Shown in pieces: positions 16,995 to 41,126 of a stretch of 64,000 nucleotides of DNA (positions are counted from its first letter, which is position 1; every line of letters starts with the position of its first letter). The stretch is from sequence record NZ_CP090789.1. One strand, written 5' to 3'. The position numbers and the translations under genes were made by a program. This DNA is from a plasmid. A model generated the notes under the pieces. That model had not been told where the DNA came from, made no database searches, and saw only the letters and a program-made list of their open reading frames with translations.

Positions 16995-17040
16995 TCGGGT
17001 TGTTTCTATGCTAGCATAGAAACGCGTAAGCGCGCGTTGT
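16995..17040 (+). promoter_or_regulatory. oriT: origin of transfer (oriT), MobQ/RSF1010-like: 22-bp perfect inverted repeat plus nic-core
   Basis: GTTTCTATGCTAGCATAGAAAC followed by GCGTAAGCGCGCG; compare RSF1010 GTTTCTCGAAGAGAAACCGGTAAGTGCGCCCT; located directly upstream of the relaxase gene. Confidence 0.7.
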
Positions 17041-17286
17041 ACTTCCCTGTAGACACGGGTTTTTGCGAGCTCCCTAGAGACCTGCGGTTTTGGGGTTTCA
17101 GATCGTGAAATGGGGTTGGATCGCTGGCGCGACGTCGGTATCGTCGGGAGGTGTGTGGTCTCGACGGTGCTGCATCAGGTCCAGTCCTCCATACGGGAGG
17201 GCTGGACTGCGGGCAGTAGCACATCGGACGATTTAGGTGCGGCTGCTGCGGAGTCGAATTCGTTTTTTTTGGGTGAGGTAGAACCT

Positions 17287-17721
17287 ATGTCACGTCCCGA
17301 ATGGTTGGCGGTTCGGTTGCAGTTCATCAAGGGTCTGAATTCTCCGACCGAAGCACAGCGGCTGCTCGTTGAATTGGCTGAGCGGCCCGAACTCGACAAG
17401 TCTGACGCGCGGGTGCTCGACCAGTTGATGCGGATGGAACGTATCAACATGAAGGCCGATGAGGCGAAGGCGGAGACGGAAAAGCTTCTGCGCGCGCGCC
17501 GTCTTGAACAAGATAGGGCGCGCGCGAAGGCACACGCGGAGTTGGGTGCTGTGGTGGCGGGAGTCGGATTTCCGCTGGAGCGGGACTTGTTGGCGGGCGT
17601 GCTGCTCGAAGCGCTCGAACGCCTCAAGGCCGACCCGGCGTTGCGCACGGGTTGGAGTTCGCGCGGCGTGGCACAGGCGAAGCCAAGCGATGCGGAGGAG
17701 AAAAAGGCCGACGCGGCCTAA
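17287..17721 (+). CDS. traD: TraD-like conjugal transfer accessory protein
   Basis: Divergent from relaxase across oriT; C-terminal ELGAVVAGVGFPLERDLLAGVLLEAL resembles the rhizobial TraD motif ELGGLIVKAGL...ALLLGAL; RBS GAGGTAG. Confidence 0.5.
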   Translation: MSRPEWLAVRLQFIKGLNSPTEAQRLLVELAERPELDKSDARVLDQLMRMERINMKADEAKAETEKLLRARRLEQDRARAKAHAELGAVVAGVGFPLERDLLAGVLLEALERLKADPALRTGWSSRGVAQAKPSDAEEKKADAA

Positions 17722-19770: not shown

Positions 19771-19981
19771 GGTTTTTCTCCGGTTATCGCCTACAGCACA
19801 CCGCCGAGGCATAAAATAATTATAGGACGAAACGTCCTTATAGTGTCGGATTTAAATAAAACCCACAAACCTTTATCGGGTATTCATATTATTTTGCGTA
19901 TAGGGACGAAACGTCCTATAATTACAACCATGCCCTAGCGATTCCGCCGTGGGCGATAACCGGAGAAAAACCGTGAATCAA
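19762..19981. promoter_or_regulatory. divergent promoter/operator region: 30-nt inverted repeat arms (19762-19791 and 19952-19981) flanking two palindromic operators
   Basis: Arms GGCGATAACCGGAGAAAAACCGTGAA(C/T)CAAG carry the RBS and start codon of both divergent genes; operators GGACGAAACGTCC at 19822-19844 and 19900-19920, each overlapping a TATAAT -10. Confidence 0.6.
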
Positions 19982-20392
19982 GTTGAACTGGAAGTGAAGC
20001 GTTACGAGTGGCCCGATCATCAGCGCGCGGCCTTCTTCCCGCATTATCTGAAGCGTCGAGCGGCATGTGCGCAATTGGCCGTCGTGCGCTGGGCCAAAAT
20101 TCTGTTCCCGGCCTATACGACGTCCGGCTGGCACTTTTATGGGCTGGAATCCAAGGGCTTCTATGTCGCTCCGCTGCTGCTGAAGGACGAACAAATCGAA
20201 GTCGGTGGCCACCGCATGAGCGCCGATGCGTTCGGCGTACTGGTTACGCTGGCGGCTCTGGAGGAAATGGGGGAGTCGGAACTGTTCACCGCGTTGCATG
20301 GCTTTGCTTGCCTTCACGATGAGGCACGGGCAATTCTCGGCGGCGGTGAGATCGCCCGCGACGAGATGATTTCGGCAGAAATTCCGTTCTAA
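19973..20392 (+). CDS. ArdB/KlcA-like antirestriction protein candidate (140 aa)
   Basis: Size, and a GWHFYGLESKGFYVAP motif remembered as ArdB/KlcA-like (unverified); position in leading region; GTG start with RBS GGAGAAAAA. Confidence 0.4.
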   Translation: MNQVELEVKRYEWPDHQRAAFFPHYLKRRAACAQLAVVRWAKILFPAYTTSGWHFYGLESKGFYVAPLLLKDEQIEVGGHRMSADAFGVLVTLAALEEMGESELFTALHGFACLHDEARAILGGGEIARDEMISAEIPF

Positions 20393-21231: not shown

Positions 21232-21366
21232 CGTCGGCTCCGCCCGCGGCTTCTATACCTTCATGTTCGCGTGAGAGGGTTTGTTTTCGATCGCGCCGGC
21301 GCCGATCAGGTCACCGGCCTGGTCGGCGCCGGCGCGATCGAATTACGAGGACGGTGATGCCGGCCT

Positions 21367-21591: not shown

Positions 21592-22236
21592 TTAGGCAGC
21601 GATGGCGAGGCGGTCGATCTCTAGCCGGTCGCAAGCAGCGGCGTAGTAGGTCGGATCGAGCTCGATGCCGATGTAGTAGCGGCCGAGCTCGCGCGCGGCA
21701 ACGCATGTCGAGCCCGACCCAGCGAACGGATCAAGGACGACGTCGCCAGGGGCCGTGTACGTCTCGATGAGTCGCTTGAGGCACGGAACCGGCTTCTGCG
21801 TGGGATGGTGCCGATTGCCGGAATATTCCCAGCGCATCACGTCAGGCAGCGGCGTAGCCGGCACAGCCGGCTGGCCCTTCGCGAGCACGTACGCGGATTC
21901 GTGGCGGTACGCGACAAAGCGCGATTTCGACGCATAGGACTTCGCGAAAACGATGTGGCCGACGACGCGCAGGCCCGCGCGCTTCCACGCGTCGAAAAAG
22001 CGGTCCGTTTTCGTCCAGCCGTAGAAGCTCACGCAAAGCGTGTTCGGCTTCATGACGCGGTACACCTCCGCGAATGCCGGCGCCAGCCAGTCCGATTTCA
22101 CATCGTTTGCGATCGAGCGCCCGGAGCGATCGTGATAGTTGACGAGATAGGGCGGGTCAGTCAGGACGAAGTCGACCACGCCGTCCGGAATGGACGGCAA
22201 CACTTCCAGGCAGTCGCCGTTATAGAGAAAGCTCAT
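21592..22236 (-). CDS. orphan DNA methyltransferase (N4-C/N6-A family, DPPY motif)
   Basis: VLTDPPYLVNY catalytic motif and FAGSGSTCVAA SAM-binding motif (PF01555-type); no adjacent restriction endonuclease. Confidence 0.85.
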   Translation of the reverse strand: MSFLYNGDCLEVLPSIPDGVVDFVLTDPPYLVNYHDRSGRSIANDVKSDWLAPAFAEVYRVMKPNTLCVSFYGWTKTDRFFDAWKRAGLRVVGHIVFAKSYASKSRFVAYRHESAYVLAKGQPAVPATPLPDVMRWEYSGNRHHPTQKPVPCLKRLIETYTAPGDVVLDPFAGSGSTCVAARELGRYYIGIELDPTYYAAACDRLEIDRLAIAA

Positions 22237-22707
22237 GTATGCGCTCCACAGTTGGGGGGCGGATAGCGCGTTTCCGTGTGCGGCTCCGAAATGTCGCTAC
22301 CCGGCGCTTGCGAGCGCCGCGCAGGGGTTGCCGGTCAAGGGACCGTGGAATAACGGGGAGGCAGTCCGTAGGAGGGCACCGTTTATGCCGCGAAAGCCCT
22401 TGAAAGAGTGGGCGCGCGCCGGAGCGTGCGGGCCCGTTCTGGCCGGCGAAACCAGCGCGGCGATCGTTTGCGACGGGTAGCGACATCCATTTAGAACCCC
22501 GGGCGCTTTATCTCCTTTCGGGCGTGGTTAGAGCCACTAGCCGAGGCCTGGAGGGGGAGGTTCGGCGTGCGGTTACTCATGAGGGCGGGCCTCGGTTTAT
22601 GGGCCGCCCGATCTGGAGTGCGCCGCGCGCCCGGAAGGGGATAGGCTGCGGGCTGTGACCATCGTCGATGCTCAGGAACAGGCCCCGGCATGGCCGGGGC
22701 TTCGAAA

Positions 22708-24682
22708 TTACGCCGTCAGGATCATCAGCGCGGTATTGACGGAGCTTGCAGACTCGGCGAACGTATCGGCCGGCAGGTCCACCCACTCTCCACCGTGGGC
22801 CGCCACGAGACGCTGAAGCGCTTCACGCCGGCGCGGACCATTCGCGCAGACCGCCACGAGTCGGCCACCTGGCTTGAGCATCTCGAGCGCATGCCGAATA
22901 TGCCGAATGTCATCGCCGTGCGAGAACGGTGGGTTCATGACGATCCGGTCGAATGGTGTCGGCGCCACGTACGTGAGGAAATCCGTGTTGATCACGTCGG
23001 CGCCGGCCTCGCTGACGCGCAGGTGATCGCACAGGCGGGCGCTGATCTCGACGGCGGTCCGCACCGCAGCGCCACCCGTCGCCTCGCGGATCGCGCGCAG
23101 GATCCGGCCGGTGCCGGCACTCGGTTCGAGAACGGTATGTCCCGGCTCGATCGCGGCCAGCTCGACCATGCGCGCAGCGAGTGATACGGGCGTGGGGAAC
23201 AGCTGCGAGGCGCTCACGACCTGCACCCCATGCTTCAGCTGCTCACGCATTGCATTGAACTGCGCGCCGTCGTCGCCGGCGGCCGCGTGCTCAGTCGTCG
23301 AGCCGTTCGTCGGAACGGTGGTCACATCGCTCGGGCGCTCGACGGATGCGGCTGCCGTGAGATCCGGCGCGGCGAGCTCATCCGTGTTTCCAGCCGGCGA
23401 GATTGCCGGCGGGTTGACGCGTTTAACGTCGGTCAGGTAGACCGCCACCAATGCACCGCGGTGGACCACCGAACGCACGCGGTGCCGGCCGACCGCGCTA
23501 GCGACGTCCGCTGCGCCCTTGATGTCCGGCCGATACCTGCCCGGTCGAACGGCGCCGGCGCCGAGCTCGCGCGAACCCTTGTAGTCGCGATGCGTGGCGT
23601 CCCATTCGGCCTTGGTCATTGCGTGAAAGCCGGTACCGGGGTAGTTGCAAAGGGGCGGCAGCTTGCTTGCTGCCTTCACCGTGGCCGCCACTTCGGCGGA
23701 CGGAGCGCGGTAGTCCTTGATTTCTTCGATGCCCCGTACCGGCACGAATCGCGCGTTGGTGGTCACGCTGCAGATTGCGCCGGCGGAGCGATTCACGCGC
23801 GTCACCACAAGCCACTCGCCGCGTACGAGTACCTGGCCCCCGGGCACGATGTCGAAACCATCGGCCTTGATGCCGCCTTGTTCCGCGAGCATCGCGCGCT
23901 CGTAGTTCAGTCGGCAATCGTAATGCGCAATCCAGCGTTCCCAATGTGCGCGATTACGTCCTTCACGCTCGAGGTACTGGTCACAGGTCGCGCGGAAGTT
24001 ATCGGGGTCCGCGTTGATTGCGCTCCAAAGGCCGTGCAGACTCGACGCCGAAGCCACCATGAGGGCACGCTCTGCGGTCAGCGTCGGCGATCGCAGCGCA
24101 TCAGCTGCAGCCTTCAGGAGATCGAGGCTACGCGTGCACTTGCGGCGGTCGGCCTCGATGCGCTTAATCCGACGATGGCGGACGTCCGCACGCTCCTTGT
24201 ATTTCGCGTGTTGCAGCGCCCCCGCTGCGCGGCGCTCCCAATATTCGTGGGTGTCCCACATCGAGACCGCTTTGCGCATGGCGTTGTCGATGCGCTCCGC
24301 ATCGCGTCGCGCGCGGGCTTCGCTGTGGTGACCGACCAGGATCGGCTGACCGAGTGGGATATGCTCGGTGATCGATGTGACGACGGCATGCGCGGCCTTC
24401 GCGTCCGCCGCGCGCCGTTCGCTATAACCATCGAATCGGTCGGCACGCTCTTCCGCGCGTTCGACGAGCGACGTGTCCTCGTCGTCGATTTCGCCGCACA
24501 GCTCGATGAGAAGATCTTCGCGGGCCGGCGTCCAGCTCGGCGCGACGAACAGATCCTGTTTCGGCGCGAACCGGAACCCGGCATCGTGAACACGTCGATA
24601 CAGGCCTTCCTCGAGGCGCGCGGTGCTGTACAGACGCAGCTTGTTGTCGTCGGGGGAATAGGTTGCCGTCAGGTGTTGCATG
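22708..24682 (-). CDS. DUF3560-domain protein fused to C-terminal N6-adenine DNA methyltransferase
   Basis: N-terminus ATYSPDDNKLRLYSTARL...FAPKQDLFVAPSWTPAREDLL typical of DUF3560; C-terminus VLEPSAGTGRIL...NPPF methyltransferase motifs; RBS GGAG before ATG 24682. Confidence 0.8.
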
Positions 24683-24702
24683 TGTGCTCCAGGTTGGTTT
24701 TT

Positions 24703-25190
24703 GCTGACCGGGACCCAAGATTCTGAGTCCCCGCGTATTGGGTTCTGTCGAGTCGGCGTGCTGCGCTTCGCAGCTGCCGCCGGTCCCCTTAGTTCGTCGT
24801 CCCGCGAACGGACGAGCGCCGGCCGGCGCCGGGTCAAGGGATCACGCGCGGGGTGGGGCGGGAGGGAGCGCAGCGCACGACACGGCCTCGCGCGCCTTGA
24901 CGCGGCAAAGGCCGGCGCTACGGTCGCGGAACTAGGACGACGAGCTCAGGGGACGGGAAGGTCGGTAGCGGCCGCATGCCGATGAGGCAGAACGCCGCGC
25001 GCGGCGAGCGCGCTATCTGAGGCGCGAAGCGGCTCAGGTGGACATGGGGTGGCCAGCGCCGGGGCGTGCTGCGGGACGCAGCTCGGCCCCTAGAGCGTGG
25101 TGGGGTATCCGGGCCGCGGAGAAAGCGGCTCGCGTGGCAAAGCGATCACGTCGGTTTGGTGCGCGAGCCGGCGCGGCTCGGCTCGATCCG
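24703..25190. repeat. about 488-bp direct repeat copy 1 (5' leader of the DUF3560-MTase gene)
   Basis: About 95% identical to 27985-28473; ends about 20 nt before the start codon of the minus-strand gene. Confidence 0.85.
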
Positions 25191-25208
25191 GTTGCTCCGG
25201 GCCATGAG

Positions 25209-25232
25209 AAAAGGGGCTTTCGCCCCTTCCCT
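25209..25232 (-). terminator. rho-independent terminator (GGGGCGAAAGCCCCTTTTCT on the minus strand)
   Basis: 7-bp GC stem, 4-nt loop, T-run on the minus strand; immediately after the 36-aa ORF. Confidence 0.6.
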
Positions 25233-25342
25233 TACCGCAGCACCACGCACATGCGCCGTGGTGTCCACCAGACCAGAAGCGCGTATTCATTGCTGAAAAA
25301 CTCCGCGTTGTCGTGGTCGATGTAGATCACTGGATCGATCAT
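25232..25342 (-). CDS. small 36-aa ORF with strong RBS (candidate leader or small peptide)
   Basis: AAAGGAGATGACC-ATG; MIDPVIYIDHDNAEFFSNEYALLVWWTPRRMCVVLR; preceded by hairpin 25362-25383 and followed by terminator. Confidence 0.3.
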   Translation of the reverse strand: MIDPVIYIDHDNAEFFSNEYALLVWWTPRRMCVVLR

Positions 25343-25552
25343 GGTCATCTCCTTTAAATGTGGGACCGCGAACATGCGGTCCCATCTTTATTTATGCGTG
25401 CACGCCGAATCGGCGCAAAAAATCCGGGCCGCCGACAACTACCCGAACTCGACCGGCCGCGCCGGTGCTGCGCAAGCCATGCCTCGGCAGTTCTTGCCGC
25501 CGCTAAGGCGACCGGTCTGTCTGCCCACCGGGGCACGTGTCCTCTGCCTCCA

Positions 25553-27382
25553 TCACGAGTCGAAGGCAAACTCGAAGGTGGTTTGCGCCCCAGCCGTCGT
25601 AGCCTTGTGCGCCCAGGCATGCCGCGCGTTGTCCGGCAGGTCACCAAAGCGCACCCCTTGCTGGACCAGCTGCTCGGCGTTGTGCCCGAGATTTAGGCCG
25701 AGCCGGTCCTTGAAGTCGGTGCGTCGCGCCACCTCATCGTGCTTGAGCTGCTGCTTGTGGGAAAGCGTCAGCGCGCCGTAGCTCAGATACCACCGATAGC
25801 CGGCCGTGATTCCGCCGGGATGAAAACCGCGATCGTGCATGTCGGCCAGTCGATCGGCCTCGAATTCCAGGATCATCTCGGCCGACTCGACATCGACGTC
25901 GAATCGCGTGCCCGTCCGAACCTCCCATGTGCTCTTGCCGTCACCGAGATCCATGACTGTCGGCGCGCAGGGCGAGCGCTCGGTCAATGCTTCGAACAGC
26001 GGGTCACGAAAGCCCGTCCACTGATCCGCTGTTTCGTCCCATTCAGTGCCGACCTTCAGGAAAAGTGGTTCCGGCAACGGTGCCGGCGCGACCGGCGTGA
26101 TTTCCGGAACGGAATAGCTCATGCCACGCTCGCAGATGTCGCGGTAGTCTGCCCAGATCGCGAAGGGCGCCGCGAGTCCCTGCAGGGACTGCATCGCGTC
26201 GACGGCGATCATCATCGGTAACGGTAACGTCTGGAATTTCGGGCGCGTCCCGGCGCGCCGCGCGCGGATCCTCTCCTCTCGATCGATTGTCAGCATGTAC
26301 CGGACGAGCTCGCGGACGGTCGCGGCGCCGAACGTATCGGGCTCGAGGCAGATGTACCCTTCTCGGATCGTGCGACCGACCCAGTTGCGGCGCGACCAGT
26401 CGTAGCGGATTGCGCGGATGAATCGATTCAGCTGCTGCAGACCGCGCGCATAGGCGTAACGATCTCCGTCGAATCGGATCATCTCGGCAAGCGACCGATC
26501 ATCGGCTTGCTGGCAGGTCCAGCAGCCGGTGCGTGCATCGCAATGTCCGCGGCGCACGCGCTTGCCGGCGGACGCCTCCTCGAAGGTGAGATCCGACACG
26601 ATCGCGCAGCTGCTGTTACCGGCATGCGCGTAGATCCGCTTCGTCTCATCGAAATCCGTGTAGCTGTCGCGCAGACCGGACGATACTTCGCCAATGAACT
26701 CCCAGACGTCTTCGGTCGACCAGCCCGCAATCGGGCAGAGCGTGAGCTCCCCGTCACTGTTGCGGACCGGCGTATCCGCGCGATCGCCGCGCGCGGTCAT
26801 CTTCGCTTTGCGCCGCTCGCTCTCTTCGAACCGTGTGCCGAGCAATACGACCGGCTCGGCATAACCGGCCTTCCGTGCCTCGCGGTACAGCTGGTTGCGG
26901 CCGACGCGGCTCGGCTCGATTTTCAACGAAACCGAGCAGTCGGAGTTCGTGCCAGCGTAGCTTGGCAGGGCGCGGCCGGTCAGCACAGCCAGCTGCCAAG
27001 ACGTCGCAAGCGACGGCGCCACAACCTGCACGCGGACGTCGAAGCCGTGCTCGCGACCGAACGCCCCCATCTTCTCGAGCTCACGCAGTGCATGCTCGAC
27101 CATTTCAGGCGACTCCACCAGGGTGTCAGCCGTGATCACGCAGACGAGCGGCCGGCCGCCGGCGGCCGCGTGCAGGCGGGCGGCATCAAGCGCGAGACTG
27201 GTCACGACTCCGCTATCCTTGCCCGCGCTGAATTGGCAAATCACCATTCGGTTGTCGGTGAAAAGCGCCCCCAGCGCTTCGATCGCGCGCGCAACGCGCT
27301 GGTCGAGAGAGGGGCGCATTTCGGCCTGCAGGAACATTTCGACCGTTTCCATCGAATTCAGCCGAAATACCAGACGTTGCAC
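25553..27382 (-). CDS. PP-loop PAPS-reductase-family protein (DndC/IbrA/BrxP-like) with Cys cluster
   Basis: ICQFSAGKDSGVV PP-loop ATP-pyrophosphatase motif; CDARTGCWTCQ Cys cluster; 609 aa; alternative start ATG 27352. Confidence 0.75.
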   Translation of the reverse strand: MQRLVFRLNSMETVEMFLQAEMRPSLDQRVARAIEALGALFTDNRMVICQFSAGKDSGVVTSLALDAARLHAAAGGRPLVCVITADTLVESPEMVEHALRELEKMGAFGREHGFDVRVQVVAPSLATSWQLAVLTGRALPSYAGTNSDCSVSLKIEPSRVGRNQLYREARKAGYAEPVVLLGTRFEESERRKAKMTARGDRADTPVRNSDGELTLCPIAGWSTEDVWEFIGEVSSGLRDSYTDFDETKRIYAHAGNSSCAIVSDLTFEEASAGKRVRRGHCDARTGCWTCQQADDRSLAEMIRFDGDRYAYARGLQQLNRFIRAIRYDWSRRNWVGRTIREGYICLEPDTFGAATVRELVRYMLTIDREERIRARRAGTRPKFQTLPLPMMIAVDAMQSLQGLAAPFAIWADYRDICERGMSYSVPEITPVAPAPLPEPLFLKVGTEWDETADQWTGFRDPLFEALTERSPCAPTVMDLGDGKSTWEVRTGTRFDVDVESAEMILEFEADRLADMHDRGFHPGGITAGYRWYLSYGALTLSHKQQLKHDEVARRTDFKDRLGLNLGHNAEQLVQQGVRFGDLPDNARHAWAHKATTAGAQTTFEFAFDS

Positions 27383-27948
27383 TGATGGACGGCATCACGC
27401 GTAAAGCTCTCGCGGAGTCCTGGTTCGAGCTCGCTGTTCGCAAGAATCCGTTCGAACAAGTTGAGGATACGGACGCATGCGTCGCCGACGTGCGAATTGG
27501 AATCGCACTCCAAGATCTCGGTGTCGAGCTCGGTCCACAGCGCCGCGTTGATCTTCTGCCGCACAGTGCCTTTCGTCGTCGGCTCGTCTCGTTCCTCTTC
27601 TGGTGGGACCGGGAAACCCGCAGCCGCGAGCTCGCGACGCGCCTGGTCGTCCCATCGAGTCGGCGCTTCGGCGTCGCATCGGAATGCATACCGGATCGCG
27701 GCCTCGCATTCCGGTGTTCCTTCCTCGGTCTCAACCTTCACGGCAACCTCAAAGTAGTTGCCGAAGCCATGCGTGCAGGCCCGGACAATGAATCGTGCTC
27801 CCTGCGGTGGCTCACCCAGCGCCCGCGTAATCACTTTGATGAAGGCGCGACACTCCGCGCGGCTGCGATCTTGATAGTTCTCGTTTCCCAGCTGAACGCA
27901 CGGCTCGTTGGCCGGCGAAGGCCCACAATCAATAATCAGTTTGTACAT
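27358..27948 (-). CDS. hypothetical Cys-containing protein (196 aa), first gene of the operon with the DndC-like gene
   Basis: RBS GAGAGGAAGAGC before ATG; overlaps or abuts the downstream PAPS-reductase-like gene. Confidence 0.55.
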   Translation of the reverse strand: MYKLIIDCGPSPANEPCVQLGNENYQDRSRAECRAFIKVITRALGEPPQGARFIVRACTHGFGNYFEVAVKVETEEGTPECEAAIRYAFRCDAEAPTRWDDQARRELAAAGFPVPPEEERDEPTTKGTVRQKINAALWTELDTEILECDSNSHVGDACVRILNLFERILANSELEPGLRESFTRDAVHQCNVWYFG

Positions 27949-27984
27949 GCTCTTCCTCTCTGGCGTACCGCGCGACGCGGTGTT

Positions 27985-28473
27985 AGCTGCCCGGGCTCCA
28001 AGATTCGGAGTCCCGACGTATTGGGTTCTGTTGAGTCGGCGTGCTGCGCTTCGCAGCTGCCGCCGGTCCCCTTAGTTCGTCGTCCCGCGAACGGACCAGC
28101 GCCGGCCGGCGCCGGGTCAAGGGAACACGCGCGGGGTGGGGCGGGAGGGAGCGCAGCGCACGACACGGCCCCGCGCGCCTTGACGCGGCAAAGGCCGGCG
28201 CTACGGTCGCGGAACTAGGACGACGAGCTCAGGGGACGAGAAGGTCGGTAGCGGCCGCATGCCGATGAGGCAGAACGCCGCGCGCGGCGAGCGCGCTATC
28301 TGAGGCGCGGAGCGGCTCAGGTGGACATGGGGTGGCCAGCGCCGGGGCGGGCTGCGGAACGCAGCGCGGCCCCTAGAGCGTGGTGGGACATCCGGGCCGC
28401 GGAGAAAGCGGCTCGCGTGGCAAATCGATTACGTCGGTTTGGTGCGCGAGCCGTCGCGGTCCGGCTGGATCCA
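27985..28473. repeat. about 488-bp direct repeat copy 2 (5' leader of the 196-aa/DndC-like operon)
   Basis: About 95% identical to 24703-25190; begins about 37 nt upstream of the start codon. Confidence 0.85.
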
Positions 28474-28555
28474 GCTGCGAAAAGAAACTCGCCCCGGTTT
28501 CAGTGCCTAGCTATTTGAGTAAGCGAACCTGATCTGATAGCTTCTTACTCGAGAA

Positions 28556-30291: not shown

Positions 30292-30421
30292 CGACGCGCG
30301 CAAGTGAATTTCGCACCGATAGAGTGCTCCACGGTCGGGGCTTACCTGACGACAGCGATCGCCACCGGCAACCCGATACTTGCGTTACCCTGTTTCGGTA
30401 CGGTTGCCCTGGGAGTCGGCG

Positions 30422-31333
30422 ATGTGCTATTCGGCAAAGATCCAAACCAACTATCGTGAGTACGCGCGACGTTACGGTGCCGACATGGACATCGAGACAT
30501 TCCGCCATCTGTTCTTCGCGCGCGCGGCCGGAAGCGACATCAGAATTCCGAAGGCGGTCGACGCGGCGCTCGTAGGTGTCGACGAAGAAATCTCGGCGGC
30601 GATCGCTGCGTATCGAAGCCAGCGAACACGGAAGCTGGAGACCGATCTGTTCGAGCAGCGAGCGCGCCTCGCCGCGGCCGAGAAGAAGCTCGCCGTGAAG
30701 ACCACGAAGAAGGCGACCGAGGACGTCCGGATCGCCACGGACAAGATCGATGCGGCAACGCGCGGGCTCGACGATCTTCGCCGGCAGGACCTGCAGGAGC
30801 GTGATTCGCGGATCTTCCCCGGCTGGTATGCGCCCGTGCTGATCGAGCTCGAAGGCAAACGCCTAGTCGTGCCGATGCGGTATCGGTGCCGCATACCGGG
30901 CTGGACCGAGGCGGACGAAAAACAGAAGCCGGCAACCTATAATGCCCGCTCGGATTCGCTCGCCACGGCCTGGCGCAAGGTCTTCGGCTTCACGCATGGG
31001 CTCCTGCTCGTCGACGCTTTCTTCGAAAACGTGCGGCGCGACGGCCAGAACGTCGTGCTTCGCTTCGACCCGACGCCCCCGCAACACATGCAAGTCGCCT
31101 GCCTGTGGACCCGCACCGAGATCCCTGGCGCCGACGATTTGTGGTCGTTCGCGGCGATTACCGACGACCCACCGCCGGAAGTGGCGGCAGCGGGCCACGA
31201 CCGATGTATCGTCCCCATTAAATCCTCGAATGTTGACGCGTGGCTCGCACCACATCCAAGCCGGCGCGCGCAGCTGCGCGAGATCCTGGCCGACCGCGAG
31301 CGGCCCTACTACGAGCACCAGCTCGCAGCGTAA
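30422..31333 (+). CDS. SOS response-associated peptidase (SRAP/YedK/HMCES family)
   Basis: Starts MC (Cys2); conserved blocks YNARSDSL...WRKVF...HGLLLVDAFFE, ACLW, AITDDPPPEVAAAGHDRCIVPI...VDAWL; RBS GGAGTCGGCG. Confidence 0.7.
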   Translation: MCYSAKIQTNYREYARRYGADMDIETFRHLFFARAAGSDIRIPKAVDAALVGVDEEISAAIAAYRSQRTRKLETDLFEQRARLAAAEKKLAVKTTKKATEDVRIATDKIDAATRGLDDLRRQDLQERDSRIFPGWYAPVLIELEGKRLVVPMRYRCRIPGWTEADEKQKPATYNARSDSLATAWRKVFGFTHGLLLVDAFFENVRRDGQNVVLRFDPTPPQHMQVACLWTRTEIPGADDLWSFAAITDDPPPEVAAAGHDRCIVPIKSSNVDAWLAPHPSRRAQLREILADRERPYYEHQLAA

Positions 31334-31370
31334 ACGCGGGGGTTGGTGGGGCGGTTATCTCTGTCATATA

Positions 31371-31386
31371 CTGTACAAACATACAG
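31371..31386 (+). promoter_or_regulatory. LexA SOS box CTGT-N8-ACAG
   Basis: CTGTACAAACATACAG 21 nt upstream of the imuA ATG, embedded in an AT-rich -10-like region. Confidence 0.6.
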
Positions 31387-31406
31387 TATTTTGCGTAACC
31401 GACCCC

Positions 31407-32123
31407 ATGCACCCCGCCCTCGCCCATCCTGAAGTCATCCACCCGGCCCTCTGGCGCGCCAGTCAGCTGGCGCGCTCGAGCGTGCGCGGCGTCGACACGG
31501 GCCATCCGGAACTGACGGCCGAACTGCCCGGCGGCGGCTGGCCGGCCGGCGCGCTGATCGAGCTGCTCGCGCCGCAGCCGGGCATCGGCGAGCTTCGGCT
31601 GCTGGCGCCGGTGCTCGCGCGCGCGGCCGGCAAGCCGGTCGTGCTGATCCAGCCGCCGCATGCACTGCAACCGCTGGCGCTCGCGTACTGGGGCATCGAC
31701 CCGTCCGGGTTCGTGACGCTGCCGGCGCCGCGAACGGCCGACGCGCTGTGGGCCGCCGAACAGGCGCTGCGTGCCAGCACGTGCGCTGCCGTGCTGCTCT
31801 GGCAGCCGCATGTCCGTGCGGACGCATTGCGGCGACTCAACCTGGCCGCGCAGAGCGGCCAGGCGCTGTTCTACCTCTTCCGGCCGGCGGCCGCCGCGCG
31901 CGATGCGTCGCCGGCGCCGCTGCGGCTCGCGCTGGCGCCGAAGCGTGACGGCATCGATGTCACGTTCGTGAAGCGCCGCGGGCCTGCACGCGATGCGCCG
32001 CTGTTCGTTCCCTTGTCACCCTCGCCGATTTTGTTGAACCGCCATGCAAGTCTGGATCGGCGTGCATCTGCCGCACCTCAACCTCGAAGTGTTCCGGCCG
32101 CGATCGCCGGCGCCGTCGCCTGA
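31407..32123 (+). CDS. imuA: ImuA (SulA/RecA-fold) mutagenesis protein
   Basis: LWRASQLARS...VDTGHPELTAELPGGGWPAGALIELL...GELRLLAPVLAR...ALWAAEQALRASTCAAVLLW typical ImuA blocks. Confidence 0.7.
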   Translation: MHPALAHPEVIHPALWRASQLARSSVRGVDTGHPELTAELPGGGWPAGALIELLAPQPGIGELRLLAPVLARAAGKPVVLIQPPHALQPLALAYWGIDPSGFVTLPAPRTADALWAAEQALRASTCAAVLLWQPHVRADALRRLNLAAQSGQALFYLFRPAAAARDASPAPLRLALAPKRDGIDVTFVKRRGPARDAPLFVPLSPSPILLNRHASLDRRASAAPQPRSVPAAIAGAVA

Positions 32124-33522
32124 CGATGCGCGCGGGCTCGTCGTGCTCGAGGGCGGCCGCGTCGTGGCGCTCGATCGCGCCGCGCGTGCGCTCGGCGTGG
32201 TCGCCGGCATGCGCCGCGGTGGCGTGCTCTCTCTCGCACCGGACGCGCAGATCCGCGAGCGTGACGCCGCGCGCGAGCGCGAGCTCGTGCTCGGGGTTGC
32301 TTATGCGCTCCTGCAGTTCACACCGAGCGTCGTCGACGCCGAGGAAGCCGTGGTTGTGCTCGACGTGACCGCGAGCCTGCGCCTGTTCCACGGCATCCGC
32401 GCGCTGCGCCAGCGTGTGCGCGATGTCGTCGCGTCGTTCGGCGTCACCGCGGCGATATCCGTCGCGTCCTCGGGTCCGGCCGCGTGGATGGTCGCCCGCG
32501 GCCTGCGCGGCGGCCTCGCGCTGTCCGCGCGATCGCTGCGCCGCGCGCTCGCGCGCGTGCCTCTCGTCGTTGCGCCGGACGCCCGGCGCTACGCGAACTG
32601 GTTCGAGGATCTCGGCTGCGAAACGCTCGCCGATCTGCAGCGCTTGCCGCGCGCCGGGTTGAAGAAGCGATGCGGCACGCAACTGCTCGACTGGCTCGAC
32701 CAGGTCGCCGGCACCGCGCCGGCCGCCTACGACTGGCTCGAAATGCCGCCGTCGTTTGACACGCGCGTCGAACTGATGGACCGCGTCGAGCACGCCGAGG
32801 CGCTGCTGTTCGTCGCGCGCCGGCTGATCCTGCAGCTGACCGGCTGGCTCACCGCTAAGCAGCTGGACGTCGCCGCGTTTGCACTCCTGCTCGAGCACGA
32901 GCGCGGGCGGGACGCGATCGCGCCGACCGAGATCGAAATCGCGTTGGGCGCCCCTACCCGCTTCGAGGAGCACCTCACCCGGCTCGTCAAGGAGCGGCTC
33001 GGCCACGTCGAGCTCGCCGGGCCCGTGATTGCCGTGCGCCTAGTCGCCCACAGCGTGCAGGAAGCTGCCGCGCCGAGCGACTCCCTGTTTCCCGAGCCCG
33101 GTGGCACGCCGCAGGATCACGCACGGCTGCTGGAACTGCTGACGGCGCGGCTCGGCTCCGAGAACGTACTCGTCGCAGCTCCCATGGCCGACTACCGTCC
33201 CGAGCCGGCCGCCCGATGGGTGCCGATGCGTGACGCGCCGAAGCCGTCGCCGCTGCCGTCGGACCTGCCGCGTCCGGCCTGGCTGCTTGGCAGGCCTGTG
33301 CCGTTGCTCACACGCGAGCATCGCCCGTTTTACGGCACGCCGCTGCGCATGGTGTCGCCTGGCGAGCGCATTGAAGGTGGCTGGCAGGATGGGCAGACCG
33401 TGACGCGCGACTACTTCGTCGCCGAGGACGACAACGGCATCTGCTACTGGATCTACAAGGAGCGGCCGACGGCCAGCGACGAAAGCGACGCGCGCTTCTT
33501 CCTGCACGGCCTGTTCGGCTGA
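32044..33522 (+). CDS. imuB: ImuB (Y-family polymerase-like) mutagenesis protein
   Basis: N-terminus MQVWIGVHLPHLNLEVF typical of ImuB; followed by dnaE2. Confidence 0.8.
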   Translation: MQVWIGVHLPHLNLEVFRPRSPAPSPDDARGLVVLEGGRVVALDRAARALGVVAGMRRGGVLSLAPDAQIRERDAARERELVLGVAYALLQFTPSVVDAEEAVVVLDVTASLRLFHGIRALRQRVRDVVASFGVTAAISVASSGPAAWMVARGLRGGLALSARSLRRALARVPLVVAPDARRYANWFEDLGCETLADLQRLPRAGLKKRCGTQLLDWLDQVAGTAPAAYDWLEMPPSFDTRVELMDRVEHAEALLFVARRLILQLTGWLTAKQLDVAAFALLLEHERGRDAIAPTEIEIALGAPTRFEEHLTRLVKERLGHVELAGPVIAVRLVAHSVQEAAAPSDSLFPEPGGTPQDHARLLELLTARLGSENVLVAAPMADYRPEPAARWVPMRDAPKPSPLPSDLPRPAWLLGRPVPLLTREHRPFYGTPLRMVSPGERIEGGWQDGQTVTRDYFVAEDDNGICYWIYKERPTASDESDARFFLHGLFG

Positions 33523-33528
33523 TCCGGC

Positions 33529-36500
33529 ATGGACGCCGGCAGCTTCGGCGCCCTGCCCGCGTACGCGGAACTTCAGGTCGCCTCCGATTTTTCGTTCCTG
33601 CAGGGCGCGTCACGCGCGGAGGAATACGTCGCGCGCGCGGCGCAGCTCGGCTACAGCGCGATCGCGATCACCGACGAGTGCTCGCTCGCCGGCGTCGTGC
33701 GCGCGCACGTCGAAGCGAAGGCAGCGAACATGCCGCTGATCGTCGGCTCGCACTTCCGGCTGACGGCCGCGGACGGCGCGCCCGCGCTCGCCTTCACTGC
33801 GCTGGCGATGAATCGCGACGGTTACGGCAACCTCTGCGAATTCATTTCGCTCGGTCGCATGCGCGGCAAGAAAGGCACGTACCGGCTGGCGCCACTCGAT
33901 CTCGAACACCCGGAAGCGCCGTACACGCACCTGCGCGGCCTGCCCGACTGCGTCGCGATCCTGTCGCCCGACTTCCCAGCCAACGAGCAACGCCTTGACG
34001 CGCAGGTCGAATGGTTCGCGCGCGTGTTCGGCAATCGCGCATGGGTCGCGCTGACGCTGCACGCACGCGCGATGGACGACATCCACCGCGGCGTGGTCGA
34101 GCGCGTCGCCGCGCGGCACGGCGTGCCCGTGGTGGCCACCAGCTGGCCCCTCATGCACGTGCGATCGCGCAAACCGCTGCAGGACGTGCTGACGGGGATC
34201 CGGGTCGGCCGGCCGGTATCGGAGTGCGGGTACGAGCTCGCGCCGAACGCGGAGCGTCACCTGCGGTCGCGTCTGCGGCTCGCCAACCTCTATCCCGCCG
34301 GCGCGCTCGAGGAAACCGTACGCGTCGCGCGGCGTTGCACGTTTTCGCTCGACGACCTGAAGTACGAGTATCCGGATGAACTGGTACCGGCCGGCACCGA
34401 TCCGGCGACGTACCTGCGCGAGCAGACCTACATCGGCGCGCGCCGGCGCTTTCCGGCCGGCATCCCGATCGACGTCCAGGCGCAGATCGAACACGAGCTG
34501 CAGCTGATCGCCGACCTGAAATACGAGGCGTATTTCCTGACCGTCTACGACATCGTGCAATTTGCGCGCGAGCAAGGCATCTTGTGCCAGGGACGCGGCT
34601 CGGCTGCGAACTCGTCCGTTTGCTACTGCCTCGGCGTGACCGAGGTCGACCCGTCGCGGCAATCGATGCTGTTCGAACGGTTCATCAGCAAGGAGCGCAA
34701 CGAGCCGCCGGACATCGACGTCGATTTCGAGCATCAGCGTCGCGAAGAGGTCATGCAGTACATCTACCGCAAGTACGGCCGCGATCGCGCAGCGCTCACG
34801 GCCGCCGTCACGACATACCGGCCACGCAGCGCACTACGCGAAGCCGGCAAGGCGCTCGGCGTGGATCCGGCGATCGTCGATCGCGTCGCGAAGCAGCACC
34901 ACTGGTTCGATTCGCGCGCGGATCTGCTGCAGCGTTTTTCCGAGGCTGGCCTCGACCCCGACGCGCCGCTGAATCAGCAGTGGGCCGCATTTGCCGCGCA
35001 GCTGCTCGGCTATCCACGGCACCTGTCGCAGCATTCGGGCGGCTTCGTGATCAGCCGCGGCAAGCTCACGCGGCTCGTACCGGTTGAAAACGCAGCGATG
35101 GAGGATCGCTCGATCATCCAGTGGGACAAGGACGACATCGAGGCGCTCGGGATTCTGAAGATCGACGTCCTGGCCCTCGGGATGCTGTCGATGGTACGCC
35201 GCGCGCTCGACATGATCTCGGAGAAACGCGGCGAGACATTCGAGCTGCAGGACATTCCAGCCGAGGACAAGGCGACCTACGACATGCTGTGCGATGGCGA
35301 CAGCATGGGCGTGTTCCAGGTGGAATCGCGCGCGCAGATGTCGATGCTGCCGCGCCTGCGGCCGCAGTGCTTCTACGACTTGGTGATCGAAGTCGCGATC
35401 GTGCGGCCGGGCCCGGTGCAAGGCGGGATGGTGCATCCGTTTCTGCGCCGGCGCCAGGGGCTGGAGCCCGTCACGTTTCCGTCGGAAGGCATGGAGAAGG
35501 CGCTGGCTCGCACGCTCGGCGTGCCGATCTTCCAGGAGCAGGTGATGCAGGTCGCGATGCTGGCGGCCGGCTTCTCCGCCGGCGAGGCCGACCAGCTGCG
35601 CCGCGCGATGGCGGCATGGAAGCGCAAGGGGGGCCTCGAGCCGTACCACGAACGCCTGGTGAGCGGCATGCTCGAGCGCGGCTACGATCGCGAGTTCGCG
35701 GAATCCATCTTCGCGCAGATCAAGGGCTTCGGCGAGTACGGCTTTCCGGAGAGCCACGCGGCCAGCTTCGCGCTGCTCGTCTACGCGAGCGCCTGGCTGC
35801 GCCGACACGAGCCGGCCGTGTTCCTGGCCGCGCTGCTCAACAGCCAGCCGATGGGCTTTTACACGCCGTCGCAGCTCCTGCAGGACGCGCGGCGTCGCGG
35901 CGTTGAGGTGCTGCCCGTCGACGTCAACGTGAGCACATGGGATTCGGCGATCGAAGGCCCGACAACGTCGGCGCCCGTGCGTCTCGGCTTCTCGCTATTG
36001 CGCGGCATGCGCGAGGACGTCGCCGGCCGCATCGAGCTCGCACGCGCTGCGCGGTCATTCGTCGACGTCGCGGATCTCGCGCGCCGCGCGCGGCTTGATC
36101 GGCACGACCTGCAGGTGCTCGCGCGCGCGAACGCCCTCCGCTCACTCGCCGGCGGCAATCGACGCGCCGCGCTCTGGCTGGCCGCCGCCGCGGTCCCCGA
36201 TCGGGATCTGCTGCGCGGCACCGAGCGCGACGACGCGGTGCCGGCACTGCCGCAAGCATCGGAAGGCGCGGAAATCGTGACGGACTATCGTTCGATGGGC
36301 TTCACGCTCGGCCGGCATCCGCTGGCGCTGCTGCGCGAACGCCTGGCGCTCGATCGCCTGCAGTCGGCCGAACAGCTGCAGACGTTGCGCAGTGGCCAGC
36401 TCGCGCGCGCGTGCGGACTGGTTACGGTACGGCAGCGGCCGGGCACGGCGAACGGCGTACTGTTCATGACGCTCGAGGACGAGACCGGCCAGGTGAATGT

Positions 36501-36678
36501 GATCCTCTGGCCCGGCCTGCTGGAAAAGTTTCGGAAGGAAGCGCTCGGCGCCGCGCTGCTTGCCGTCTATGGTGTATGGCAGGCCGAAGGGAAGGTGCGG
36601 CATCTGATTGCGAGCAAGCTCGTCGACAGAACTGAACTACTCGGTGCACTGCCGACGACGTCGAGGGAGTTTTGTTAA
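33529..36678 (+). CDS. dnaE2: error-prone DNA polymerase DnaE2 (ImuC)
   Basis: PHP domain N-terminus ([15 protein letters not shown]), Pol III alpha core motifs, 1049 aa. Confidence 0.9.
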
Positions 36679-40866: not shown

Positions 40867-40980
40867 GTTGTAAACGCTGCTGCCGGACGCTATACTGGCC
40901 GCGCACCTGAAACAACAGGCGCCGGGTTTGGCGACCCGAACGGTTAATGCGCACAGCCGCGTTCTGCGGCTTTTTTGTGC
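40867..40980 (+). ncRNA. candidate small RNA or leader: promoter (TTGTAA-17-TATACT) plus intrinsic terminator
   Basis: -35/-10 at 40867-40894; hairpin AGCCGC-GTTCT-GCGGCT then TTTTTTG at about 40953-40980; no ORF between. Confidence 0.25.
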
Positions 40981-41126
40981 GGTATGCCTTTGCACGTCGG
41001 TTTCTATGGGCGGGCCTGGGTGGGGAGACCTTCGGGTCTGCCGGTGTTCATTAGCCGCCGGTTCGCCAACCCCGCTCTGCGCCCGCTCACCCCGTTTGGC
41101 GACGGGAGCGGGTTGAAACCCTGCTA

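Follow-up and report, generated by a model that had tools for sequence, protein, structure and literature searches.

Why should two consecutive minus-strand operons of a plasmid each be preceded by almost the same half kilobase of non-coding DNA? This question is raised by the sequence record NZ_CP090789.1, in the window analysed here (the whole stretch of 64,000 nt), where two copies of a repeat are found at 24690-25195 and 27973-28478 with about 95% identity. The first-pass annotation had placed them at 24703-25190 and 27985-28473, a few bases narrower than our boundaries, and proposed either single-strand promoters of the Frpo/ssi type or a shared structured regulatory RNA. The most likely answer is that the repeats belong to a widespread, formerly undescribed hairpin family acting as an early-gene switch on entering single-stranded plasmid DNA.

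The repeat copies and their place in the putative leading region

The duplication itself is real. A repeat search gave 96% identity between 24696-24995 and 27979-28278, and blastn aligned 25200-24690 with 28478-27979 at 94.6% over 500 nt, with which the MAFFT alignment concurs. Both copies stand just 5' of a minus-strand start codon, as first described: copy A abuts the ATG at 24681 of a DUF3560-methyltransferase gene, with GGAG 7 nt upstream, and copy B stands before the ATG (27948) of a 196-aa gene, which is followed by a PAPS-reductase-like gene (27382..25553).

24690..25195, unstranded: copy A, entire duplicated unit, 5' of the DUF3560-methyltransferase gene
27973..28478, unstranded: copy B, entire duplicated unit, 5' of the 196-aa gene and the PAPS-reductase-like gene
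22708..24681, minus: gene behind copy A, DUF3560 plus methyltransferase domain, 657 aa
25553..27948, minus: operon behind copy B, 196-aa gene (27948..27358) and 609-aa PAPS-reductase-domain gene (27382..25553)
25013..25195, unstranded: 5' extension of copy A, with small hairpins at 25017-25037, 25068-25082 and 25126-25170
28296-28478: equivalent 5' extension of copy B
17002..17038, plus: oriT-like site, a perfect 22-nt palindrome with GCGTAAGCGCGCGTT, 9/12 identical to the MOBQ nick consensus

The copies proved as rich in GC and palindromes as had been noticed, with a core of about 75% GC and several inverted repeats. The claim that they carry no consistent ORF also holds, since the ORFs inside copy A and copy B are not the same and none of them matched a Pfam family. 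One- and two-base indels fall within conserved blocks of the family alignment described below, and no annotated feature, CDS included, lies under the family matches among the 40 listed, of 251 plasmid records. Neither a conserved frame nor a known domain was found that would make the repeat a protein-coding sequence.

The oriT-like site is similar to that of RSF1010 and sits between the relaxase gene and a TraD-like ORF. Its palindrome and nick motif are on the plus strand, which suggests that this is the transferred strand and that the leading region extends from 17.04 kb upward, an assignment based on the 9/12 motif match and the gene arrangement. The repeats are 7.8 and 11.1 kb 3' of this site and their downstream genes are on the minus strand, in agreement with the leading-region location first supposed. 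The same arrangement of oriT, copies and genes is observed in pBPSE01, pI, pOLGA2 and the Tn4371-type backbone, and the orientation of the element relative to oriT is the one required of ssDNA promoters.

A family of modules oriented with their genes

The 3' 330 nt of the repeats represent a family found in 423 places of 251 plasmid records, 223 of them conjugative, and also in many Tn4371-type ICEs. A merely local, recent duplication, an objection raised at the outset, does not fit this distribution. Up to 13 copies occur per plasmid. In the fetched loci, nhmmer and a covariance model recovered 123-125 full members with E-values down to 1e-86, and truncated copies exist as well (e.g., L004 22040-22199). 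The covariance model built from the family picks out the copies specifically and reports their strand. Each scored copy immediately precedes a gene and shares its orientation, and the strong matches in annotated loci are co-directional with the genes in 45 of 45 cases.

The copies precede dozens of unrelated genes, 100-130 nt 5' of a start codon with RBS. In pBPSE01, pI and pOLGA2 there are 9-13 copies per plasmid within 25-35 kb arrays of co-oriented genes, and these arrays are directed towards oriT and the genes of the T4CP and the MobF relaxase. The Tn4371-type backbone has a copy 5' of DUF932-ParB that runs in the same direction as the relaxase gene, 14 kb further downstream. Across genera, from Burkholderia to Pseudomonas and Stenotrophomonas, particular bases show strong conservation. 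With 97.5% identity to its pB1701 counterpart and 94.6% to copy B, copy A is nearer to the former, so the duplication seems to be old and maintained. The 5' extension of the repeat is common only to close Burkholderia relatives and looks like the remnants of another module.

Hairpin, promoter-like motifs and competing explanations

The core of the family is a hairpin of 180-190 nt, followed in the gene direction by a leader with smaller hairpins.

24773..24961, plus: copy A long imperfect hairpin, covariance-model score 141.9 bits, lower stem 24782-24802 pairing with 24935-24954
28056..28244, plus: copy B long hairpin, 140.4 bits, lower stem 28065-28085 pairing with 28218-28237
24897..24902, plus: copy A -35-like TTGACG in the 3' arm, pairing with 5'-arm GTCAAGG at 24833-24839
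24919..24924, plus: copy A -10-like TACGGT in the 3' arm, 16 nt past the -35, first bases in an internal loop
24930-24934: copy A bulge AACTA, 5 nt, after the -10 and over the predicted start region
28180..28185, plus: copy B -35-like TTGACG
28202..28207, plus: copy B -10-like TACGGT
24711..24731, minus: copy A small conserved leader hairpin, loop GAATCT (gene sense)
27994..28014, minus: copy B, the same small hairpin, loop GAATCT
24760..24774, minus: copy A small leader hairpin GCTGCG-AAG-CGCAGC within a GGCGG/CCGCC stem
28043-28057: copy B equivalent of this hairpin
24993..25006, minus: copy A GC palindrome CGCCGCGCGCGGCG, then TTCTG (gene sense), at the 5' boundary of the family module
28276-28289: copy B equivalent of this palindrome

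Folding the copies as ssDNA and as RNA, as had been recommended, revealed a long imperfect hairpin in the ssDNA (z = -6.0 versus shuffles), very stable at about -71 kcal/mol for 191 nt; the gene-sense RNA fold also beats shuffles (z = -4.1). The recommended comparison among homologous plasmids gave strong covariation. In 113 distinct sequences, 86.6% of cells pair, versus 33-43% for slid partners, and 35 of the 61 pairs have changes on both sides, a value reached by none of 500 shuffles and in agreement with a 32-sequence set; these shuffle controls overstate the significance because the family members are related to one another. Wobbles on the plus strand are mostly G·T (111-134, versus 38-57 A·C) regardless of the strand used to derive the structure, and the same is seen by column (28 to 11, p = 0.009). 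This excess indicates that the plus strand is the folding strand.

The -35/-10 pair that was to be looked for in the stem is present, as an invariant TTGnnn-N16-TAnnnT with the -10 partly in an internal loop. Written as TT(G/A)nnn-N16-TAnnnT, it occurs on the 3' arm of the plus strand in all 110 unique members; part of the chromosomal set was retrieved by a pattern already requiring the -10 and -35 cores, and the 44 copies found by homology, free of this bias, all have it (44/44). In the -10, the T, the A and the last T are fixed while the middle bases vary. The gene-sense strand has TTGnnn-N16-18-TAnnnT in none of the 110 members: a -35 is present on this gene-facing strand, the -10 is absent, and the segment opposite the -10 is variable in sequence. 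Nearly all folds have a paired -35; in 25 of 32 the A at position 2 of the -10 is left without a partner, and in 23 of 32 a bulge of 4-6 nt begins 5 nt past the -10. Of the 12 hexamer positions, only 8 agree with the consensus, and the hexamers went unreported in a generic promoter scan.

We suggest, with a probability of roughly 0.75, that each repeat is a cassette-type ssDNA promoter working like Frpo/ssi/ssp, a model in which transcription would start from ssDNA. During conjugation, the plus strand would be nicked at oriT near 17.03 kb and enter the recipient 5' end first, so that the 17-29 kb region would arrive early and single-stranded. The inverted repeats at 24773-24961 and 28056-28244 could then snap into long hairpins, in which the 3' arm would be the non-template strand of a sigma-70 promoter (TTGACG-N16-TACGGT) and the 5' arm the template. 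With the -35 and spacer base-paired, the first -10 bases, including the key A, in an internal loop and a 4-6 nt bulge over the start site, such a hairpin would resemble a partly opened promoter. The host RNA polymerase may initiate near the hairpin base (for copy A, probably with a template start near 24800-24803, reading leftwards) and move leftwards along the entering strand. Early mRNA for the DUF3560-methyltransferase (copy A) and the 196-aa/PAPS-reductase-like operon (copy B) would thus be made before the complementary strand. Duplex formation would remove the hairpin and leave a gene-facing strand without a -10, so expression would presumably shut off by itself. A further role of the hairpin, suggested by analogy with F, could be to prime or briefly block complementary-strand synthesis. 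In the literature we found no reports of RNA polymerase initiation or zygotic induction for this hairpin family. The covarying hairpin, the folding strand, the hexamers, the orientation and a layout shared with F ssp2 all favor the single-strand promoter initially proposed, and our verdict is that the family is probably a new sequence class of Frpo/ssi-like ssDNA promoters.

The other initial proposal, a structured 5' leader RNA (cis-regulatory, riboswitch-like or antitermination) transcribed from a conventional upstream promoter, seems improbable to us, although several observations fit it. The element is directly 5' of genes and in their orientation, its gene-sense RNA fold beats shuffles, and a covarying hairpin with an invariant loop is placed between the main hairpin and the RBS; leader antitermination RNAs are used by establishment genes of Gram-positive plasmids, as far as indicated in PMC6294495. 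However, the wobbles favor the opposite strand by about 2.5 to 1, and this strand, complementary to the mRNA, is also the one on which the TTG and the unpaired TAnnnT show sequence conservation. Immediately 5' of the module, the GC palindrome CGCCGCGCGCGGCG looks like the terminator of the preceding operon, so read-through from upstream is not an obvious source of the transcript. Rfam 15 gave no match at the gathering score in the window and none relevant at E <= 10 in 24500-25400, and the leader folds do not stand out (z between +0.1 and -2.1). The idea of a shared structured RNA is disfavored for the main hairpin, which folds on the other strand, and may still fit the conserved leader. There, the loop GAATCT is invariant throughout the family, and its hairpin covaries and would be in the mRNA. 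This hairpin is the most conserved block of the module and is outside what the promoter model accounts for. It might be a hand-off site for the synthesis of primer or complementary strand, or be bound by a host or element factor that sets the timing of expression.

Slightly less probable still is a regulatory region working as double strand, either an outward sigma-70 promoter whose antisense or insulating transcript would enter the operon before it, or a long palindromic operator bound by a plasmid repressor. As duplex, these hexamers make up an ordinary promoter directed away from the gene, so TTGACG-N16-TACGGT could be used on the plus strand and a double-strand role is conceivable. Conjugative plasmids often repeat operators over the promoters of establishment genes (IncP KorB, R388 ArdK/StbA regulons), and a genuine palindromic operator pair is found nearby, at 19817-19924. 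Nevertheless, the arrays of 9-13 copies have almost no genes on the strand that an outward promoter would serve. A protein operator would leave unaccounted for the 35 covarying pairs over 60 bp per arm, with arms 55-130 nt apart, as well as the G·T strand bias and the position of the -10 in a conserved internal loop.

We consider very unlikely that the element is a single-strand initiation or roadblock site alone, priming or pausing complementary-strand synthesis with no mRNA promoter. Frpo was originally defined as a promoter of primer RNA, F ssp2 stalls complementary-strand synthesis at the stem end (bioRxiv 10.64898/2026.01.09.698686), and the hairpins here are very stable. Priming alone would not require a fixed, gene-oriented placement 5' of the start codon and RBS of unrelated genes, which points to gene expression as the selected function. 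This possibility overlaps with the single-strand promoter and the two are not mutually exclusive. Finally, a selfish or neutral repeat (a MITE-like element, an integron attC-like site or a functionless recent duplication) would agree with the many copies per replicon, the cassette-like gene-repeat-gene arrays, the truncated copies and the module remnants in the 5' extension, but it is hardly credible given the orientation and start-codon distance fixed in all copies, which disfavor a MITE, the bases conserved across genera, and the apparent age and maintenance of the duplication. Terminal inverted repeats, target duplications and attC R/L boxes were not noticed on viewing the alignments.

Implications and comparison with known systems

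Single-strand promoters explain how anti-defence genes are expressed within the first minutes after plasmid entry. To our knowledge, they have been experimentally characterised so far only in F and IncI1 plasmids of E. coli, and surveys for them rely mainly on BLAST to a handful of enterobacterial sequences. If the reading of the repeats as ssDNA promoters is true, the mechanism extends to Burkholderia plasmids and to Tn4371-type integrative conjugative elements, which are found in Pseudomonas, Achromobacter, Stenotrophomonas, Variovorax and others with resistance and catabolic cargo. Since the family has many diverged copies, it would be the first among ssDNA promoters to give an alignment in which covariation is clear and the promoter geometry fixed, and would show as essential the paired -35, the 16-nt paired spacer, the unpaired -10 A and the start-site bulge. 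The covariance model could be used to mark where unannotated elements have their leading region and in which direction they transfer, and to flag the genes behind the copies as early-expressed anti-defence candidates. The repeated modules may also be recombination handles that shuffle cassettes.

More tentatively, the family could be a fourth, covariation-supported ssDNA-promoter class, sequence-unrelated to the enterobacterial ones, that serves establishment and anti-defence cassette arrays in Burkholderiaceae plasmids (up to 13 per plasmid) and the DUF932-ParB operon of Tn4371-type ICEs in Beta- and Gammaproteobacteria, with the GAATCT leader hairpin as a second functional module not known from Frpo/ssi.

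Among known systems, conAn of pLS20, a Gram-positive leader antitermination RNA, shares the long structured leaders before establishment or conjugation operons and may offer an analogy for the GAATCT hairpin that follows the promoter. However, it acts as RNA after a normal duplex promoter, whereas our main hairpin is formed by the other strand. Integron attC sites are also imperfect hairpins active as single strand, on one specific strand, between gene cassettes and available during conjugation. They are located 3' of cassettes, have R/L boxes and extrahelical bases and require the integron integrase; in contrast, the family here is 5' of genes, its conserved bases spell a promoter, and no R/L boxes were noticed in the alignments.

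Closer is class 1 of the ssDNA promoters (Frpo1/Frpo2 of F; ssi1-3 of ColIb-P9/pESBL), where a hairpin of the entering strand rebuilds the -35/-10; these elements drive zygotic induction of the leading region and are inactive as duplex (PMC11541004; PMC9849209; PMC12672017). The F Frpo1 region folds with z = -6.7. In the supplementary tables of PMC11541004 the motifs of our family are absent. Unlike the family, to which they have no sequence homology, Frpo/ssi elements have a lower GC content and a greater length and occur only on enterobacterial IncF/IncI-type plasmids. Their detection has relied on BLAST to five known sequences, which would miss the copies described here.

The best parallel in layout is F ssp2, a class 2 ssDNA promoter placed 5' of klcA/ardB in F and 5' of klcA and ardA in pESBL. 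Like our family, it is a long GC-rich hairpin on the transferred strand in the leading region (PMC12672017; PMC13478746), directly 5' of anti-restriction or methyltransferase-type genes, whose 3' arm has a paired TTGnnn, a paired spacer of about 15-16 nt and the start of TAnnnT in an internal loop; in our fold of ssp2 this arm reads TTGCAT...TAAGAT with TAA in the internal loop. The start site of the pESBL counterpart of this class was mapped by 5' RACE (PMC12672017), and ssp2 was later tested directly in F (bioRxiv 10.64898/2026.01.09.698686). In F 50-69 kb, covering the leading-region genes with the Frpo1 and ssp2 regions, no homology was found by blastn with word size 7, nhmmer --max or the covariance model, the best match in the leading region having 11 bits (E ~4) and being located away from ssp2. 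The family also differs from ssp2 in its hosts, Burkholderiaceae plasmids and Tn4371-type ICEs, in its copy number of up to 13 per plasmid, and in adding the start-site bulge and the conserved leader with the GAATCT hairpin.

The repeated modules and their distribution

Two near-identical direct repeats are placed 5' of minus-strand genes, as the first-pass annotation had noted. The repeat search of the window matches 24696-24995 with 27979-28278 at 96%, blastn of the copies pairs 24690-25200 with 27979-28478 (94.6% over 500 nt), and the alignment agrees. Read in gene sense, copy A closes with a GGAG, 7 nt upstream of its gene's ATG.

24690-25195: copy A of the repeat
ATG at 24681, minus strand: DUF3560-plus-methyltransferase gene, behind copy A
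27973-28478: copy B of the repeat
ATG at 27948, minus strand: 196-aa gene, behind copy B, then a 609-aa PAPS-reductase-domain gene

The same annotation saw no consistent ORF in the repeats, and this holds: the ORFs inside copy A differ from those inside copy B, and coding potential was rejected, since these ORFs are not common to both copies and have no Pfam match. A search of the window for further family copies gave none beyond these two. Of the window repeats, only the 3' 330 nt are found throughout the family; the 5' 180 nt are common to close relatives only and look like module remnants. In gene sense, the module is composed of:

Part 1: a short GC hairpin, then T-rich sequence
Part 2: an inverted repeat of 180-190 nt
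Part 3: a leader of ~120 nt, with a GGCGG/CCGCC stem and a small hairpin whose loop, GAATCT, is invariant
Part 4: RBS and start codon

Truncated copies or module remnants adjoin intact copies, at 22040-22199 in L004 (another sequence with a truncated copy) and at 25013-25195 in the window, which suggests that gene cassettes were shuffled by recombination between repeated modules. In the region 25215-25342, a 37-codon ORF starts at 25342 on the minus strand behind a strong AAGGAG RBS; a classic terminator, GGGGCGAAAGCCCCTTTTCTC, comes after it, directly 5' of copy A.

From 72,556 plasmids compared with copy A by blastn, 251 records contain matches at 423 places, with up to 14 places in one record, and 223 of these records are conjugative. 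An annotated feature was found under the match in 0 of 40 among the matches listed. In B. pseudomallei pBPSE01, P. dioscoreae pI and P. phytofirmans pOLGA2, copies occupy ~550-nt gaps between operons, which form a co-oriented gene array of 25-35 kb pointing at the oriT, T4CP and MobF relaxase region. In a Citrobacter plasmid, a copy heads a typical Tn4371-type ICE backbone and has the same orientation as the relaxase gene, which is 14 kb downstream. Plasmid pBCJ2315 of B. cenocepacia J2315 has one copy, located 5' of DUF932. The pattern scan of species-representative genomes gave more than 120 loci, and nhmmer in the fetched loci recovered ~125 full-length members, followed by DUF932 genes (67), a large ParB-like gene (14) or assorted small genes (the rest).

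A conserved hairpin and the promoter signature in its 3' arm

A long imperfect hairpin was found when the repeat was folded as ssDNA (z = -6.0 for the + strand), and individual folds gave a long stem-loop in 17/17 representatives, with a branched central part in 2. RNAalifold on the full MAFFT alignment yielded a poor consensus because of loop indels and was replaced by a consensus of individual folds and a covariance-model alignment. In the 32-sequence alignment, 84% of cells pair vs 32-41% with slid partners, and 31 of the 61 pairs change on both sides. The covariance model built from it aligned 123 matches (113 distinct), and in this set 86.6% of cells pair vs 33-43% with slid partners. The covariation looked for between the copies and homologous plasmids is thus present: 35 pairs change on both sides (520 cells), a level matched by 0/500 shuffles of these sequences, which are related to one another. 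Most swaps are in the spacer helix between the promoter hexamers (one pair, for example, is CG in 60 and GC in 26). We conclude that selection has acted on the structure of the hairpin.

The non-Watson-Crick cells indicate the strand. Read on the + strand, they are G·T in 111-134 cases and A·C in 38-57, an excess that holds for the structure derived from either strand's fold and also by column (28 to 11, p = 0.009). The selected structure is therefore that of the transferred DNA strand, or of RNA with the same sense, rather than that of the mRNA.

The -35 and -10 expected in the stem are indeed carried by the 3' arm of the + strand, as TTGACG-N16-TACGGT (24897-24924 in copy A, 28180-28207 in copy B). 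TT(G/A)nnn, a 16-nt spacer (15 nt in one) and TAnnnT occur in 110/110 unique members, some family sequences having been retrieved with a chromosomal-scan pattern that contained the hexamer cores, and in 44/44 copies retrieved by homology rather than by pattern scan. The middle bases of the -10 vary (TACAGT, TACGGT, TACGAT, TACTGT, TATGGT, TAAGGT). On the gene-sense strand, TTGnnn-N16-18-TAnnnT was found in 0/110 unique members. A generic promoter/terminator scan did not report the hexamers because it demands 9/12 matches. Folded one at a time, the sequences have a paired -35; the A at position 2 of the -10 is unpaired in 25/32, and in 23/32 a bulge of 4-6 nt (AACTA in copy A) opens in the same arm 5 nt past the -10, where transcription is expected to start.

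We propose that the hairpin acts as an Frpo/ssi-like promoter in the newly entered plasmid strand. Since the 5' to 3' direction of the 3' arm is from the loop toward the base, this arm could serve as the non-template strand, and the polymerase would read the 5' arm and continue toward the gene. The predicted start, at ~24800-24803, would give a leader of ~120 nt.

Plasmid context and the transferred strand

The window comes from a conjugative plasmid of Burkholderia type. As a rule, relaxases release the nicked strand 5' end first, and the inverted repeat exits last.

0-10.4 kb, + strand: VirB6, VirB10, VirB11 and T4CP genes
14149-16971, minus strand: MobA/MobL-TraA-like relaxase gene
17002-17038, + strand: oriT-like site, between the relaxase gene and the TraD-like ORF
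17110-17721, + strand: TraD-like ORF

The oriT-like site has a perfect 22-nt palindrome, GTTTCTATGCTAGCATAGAAAC (17002-17023), followed by GCGTAAGCGCGCGTT on the + strand, which is 9/12 identical in the nick core to the RSF1010-type MOBQ consensus, NWACCNNTAAGTGCGCCCTYNN (PMC3832669). With this putative oriT and nick on the + strand, the relaxase rule would then make the + strand the transferred one and the sequence from 17.04 kb upward the leading region, so the minus-strand genes behind both repeats would be templated by the entering strand.

Other elements were found in the neighborhood. Two inverted copies of TATAGGACGAAACGTCCTTATA (19817-19924) separate a ParB-like gene (start 19812, minus) from a divergent ArdB/KlcA-type antirestriction gene (19949-20392, plus), which is on the strand unreadable from entering DNA; the intergenic region resembles a conventional operator/promoter. 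Next to the leading region, at 30380-36678, the plasmid carries a gene for an SOS-response-associated peptidase and then an imuA-imuB-dnaE2-type mutagenesis cassette; many Burkholderia plasmids have this arrangement too. Above the Rfam gathering score, there are matches on the + strand to isrK (40903-40976) and C4 antisense RNA (41002-41094), the P1/P7-type immunity RNA pair.

A second, unrelated long hairpin (22291-22486; 47-nt arms, 79% complementary, ssDNA fold z = -5.0) is 55 nt 5' of a 214-aa N6_N4 DNA methyltransferase gene (22236..21592, minus), and homologous unannotated DNA is found in 67 plasmids. Such DNA is also present in B. cenocepacia J2315 pBCJ2315, 41 nt upstream of a gene for a 217-aa DNA methyltransferase that is probably M.BceJIII, an ssDNA methylase (PMC7736820). 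No clean -35/-10 was found in the 22291-22486 hairpin, which may be another class of ssDNA promoter. Downstream of the 214-aa methyltransferase gene there is a near-perfect 25-nt hairpin (21286-21342, 96% complementary, 7-nt loop).

Alternative readings and known ssDNA promoters

From the first proposal of either single-strand promoters or a structured RNA, the promoter is favoured, and an RNA role may hold for the GAATCT hairpin (24711-24731 and 27994-28014). This hairpin, like the first ~25 predicted transcribed bases (GGGACGAYGAACTCAGGGGA), is better conserved than the promoter hexamers in all genera; it is the best-conserved block of the module and is left unexplained by the promoter reading. 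It could be an element of the leader RNA, for which folding found no unusual stability. A tRNA-like nature was rejected (no ARAGORN match), as was a conventional gene-sense promoter around GAATCT on alignment inspection, since there is no conserved -35. For the main hairpin, a structured leader RNA is disfavoured: the wobble bias points to the opposite strand, the conserved unpaired TAnnnT sits on that strand, and Rfam has no match at the repeats, at gathering score or at E <= 10.

If the hairpin were purely for priming or a roadblock, its fixed distance to the start codons would go unexplained; such activity may be an added role. Neither an operator nor a duplex promoter directed away from the gene would account for covariation across 60 pairs, or for arrays in which the strand read by such a promoter has hardly any genes. 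The fixed orientation and the conservation across genera argue against a selfish repeat.

The ssDNA promoter reading places these hairpins beside known elements. Class 1 comprises Frpo of F and ssi of ColIb-P9; 5' RACE on pESBL and F established two further classes (PMC12672017). Homology to the F leading region (50-69 kb) was rejected, since blastn, nhmmer --max and the covariance model each gave no match there. The family motifs are absent from the supplementary tables of a large Frpo survey (PMC11541004), and we found no prior description in the literature. We therefore treat the family as a new sequence class, with predicted function, within the established ssDNA-promoter concept. The class 2 promoter of F, ssp2, which doubles as a replication roadblock (bioRxiv 10.64898/2026.01.09.698686), resembles the family in its transferred-strand fold, with TTGCAT, a paired spacer and TAAGAT in the 3' arm and the TAA in an internal loop.
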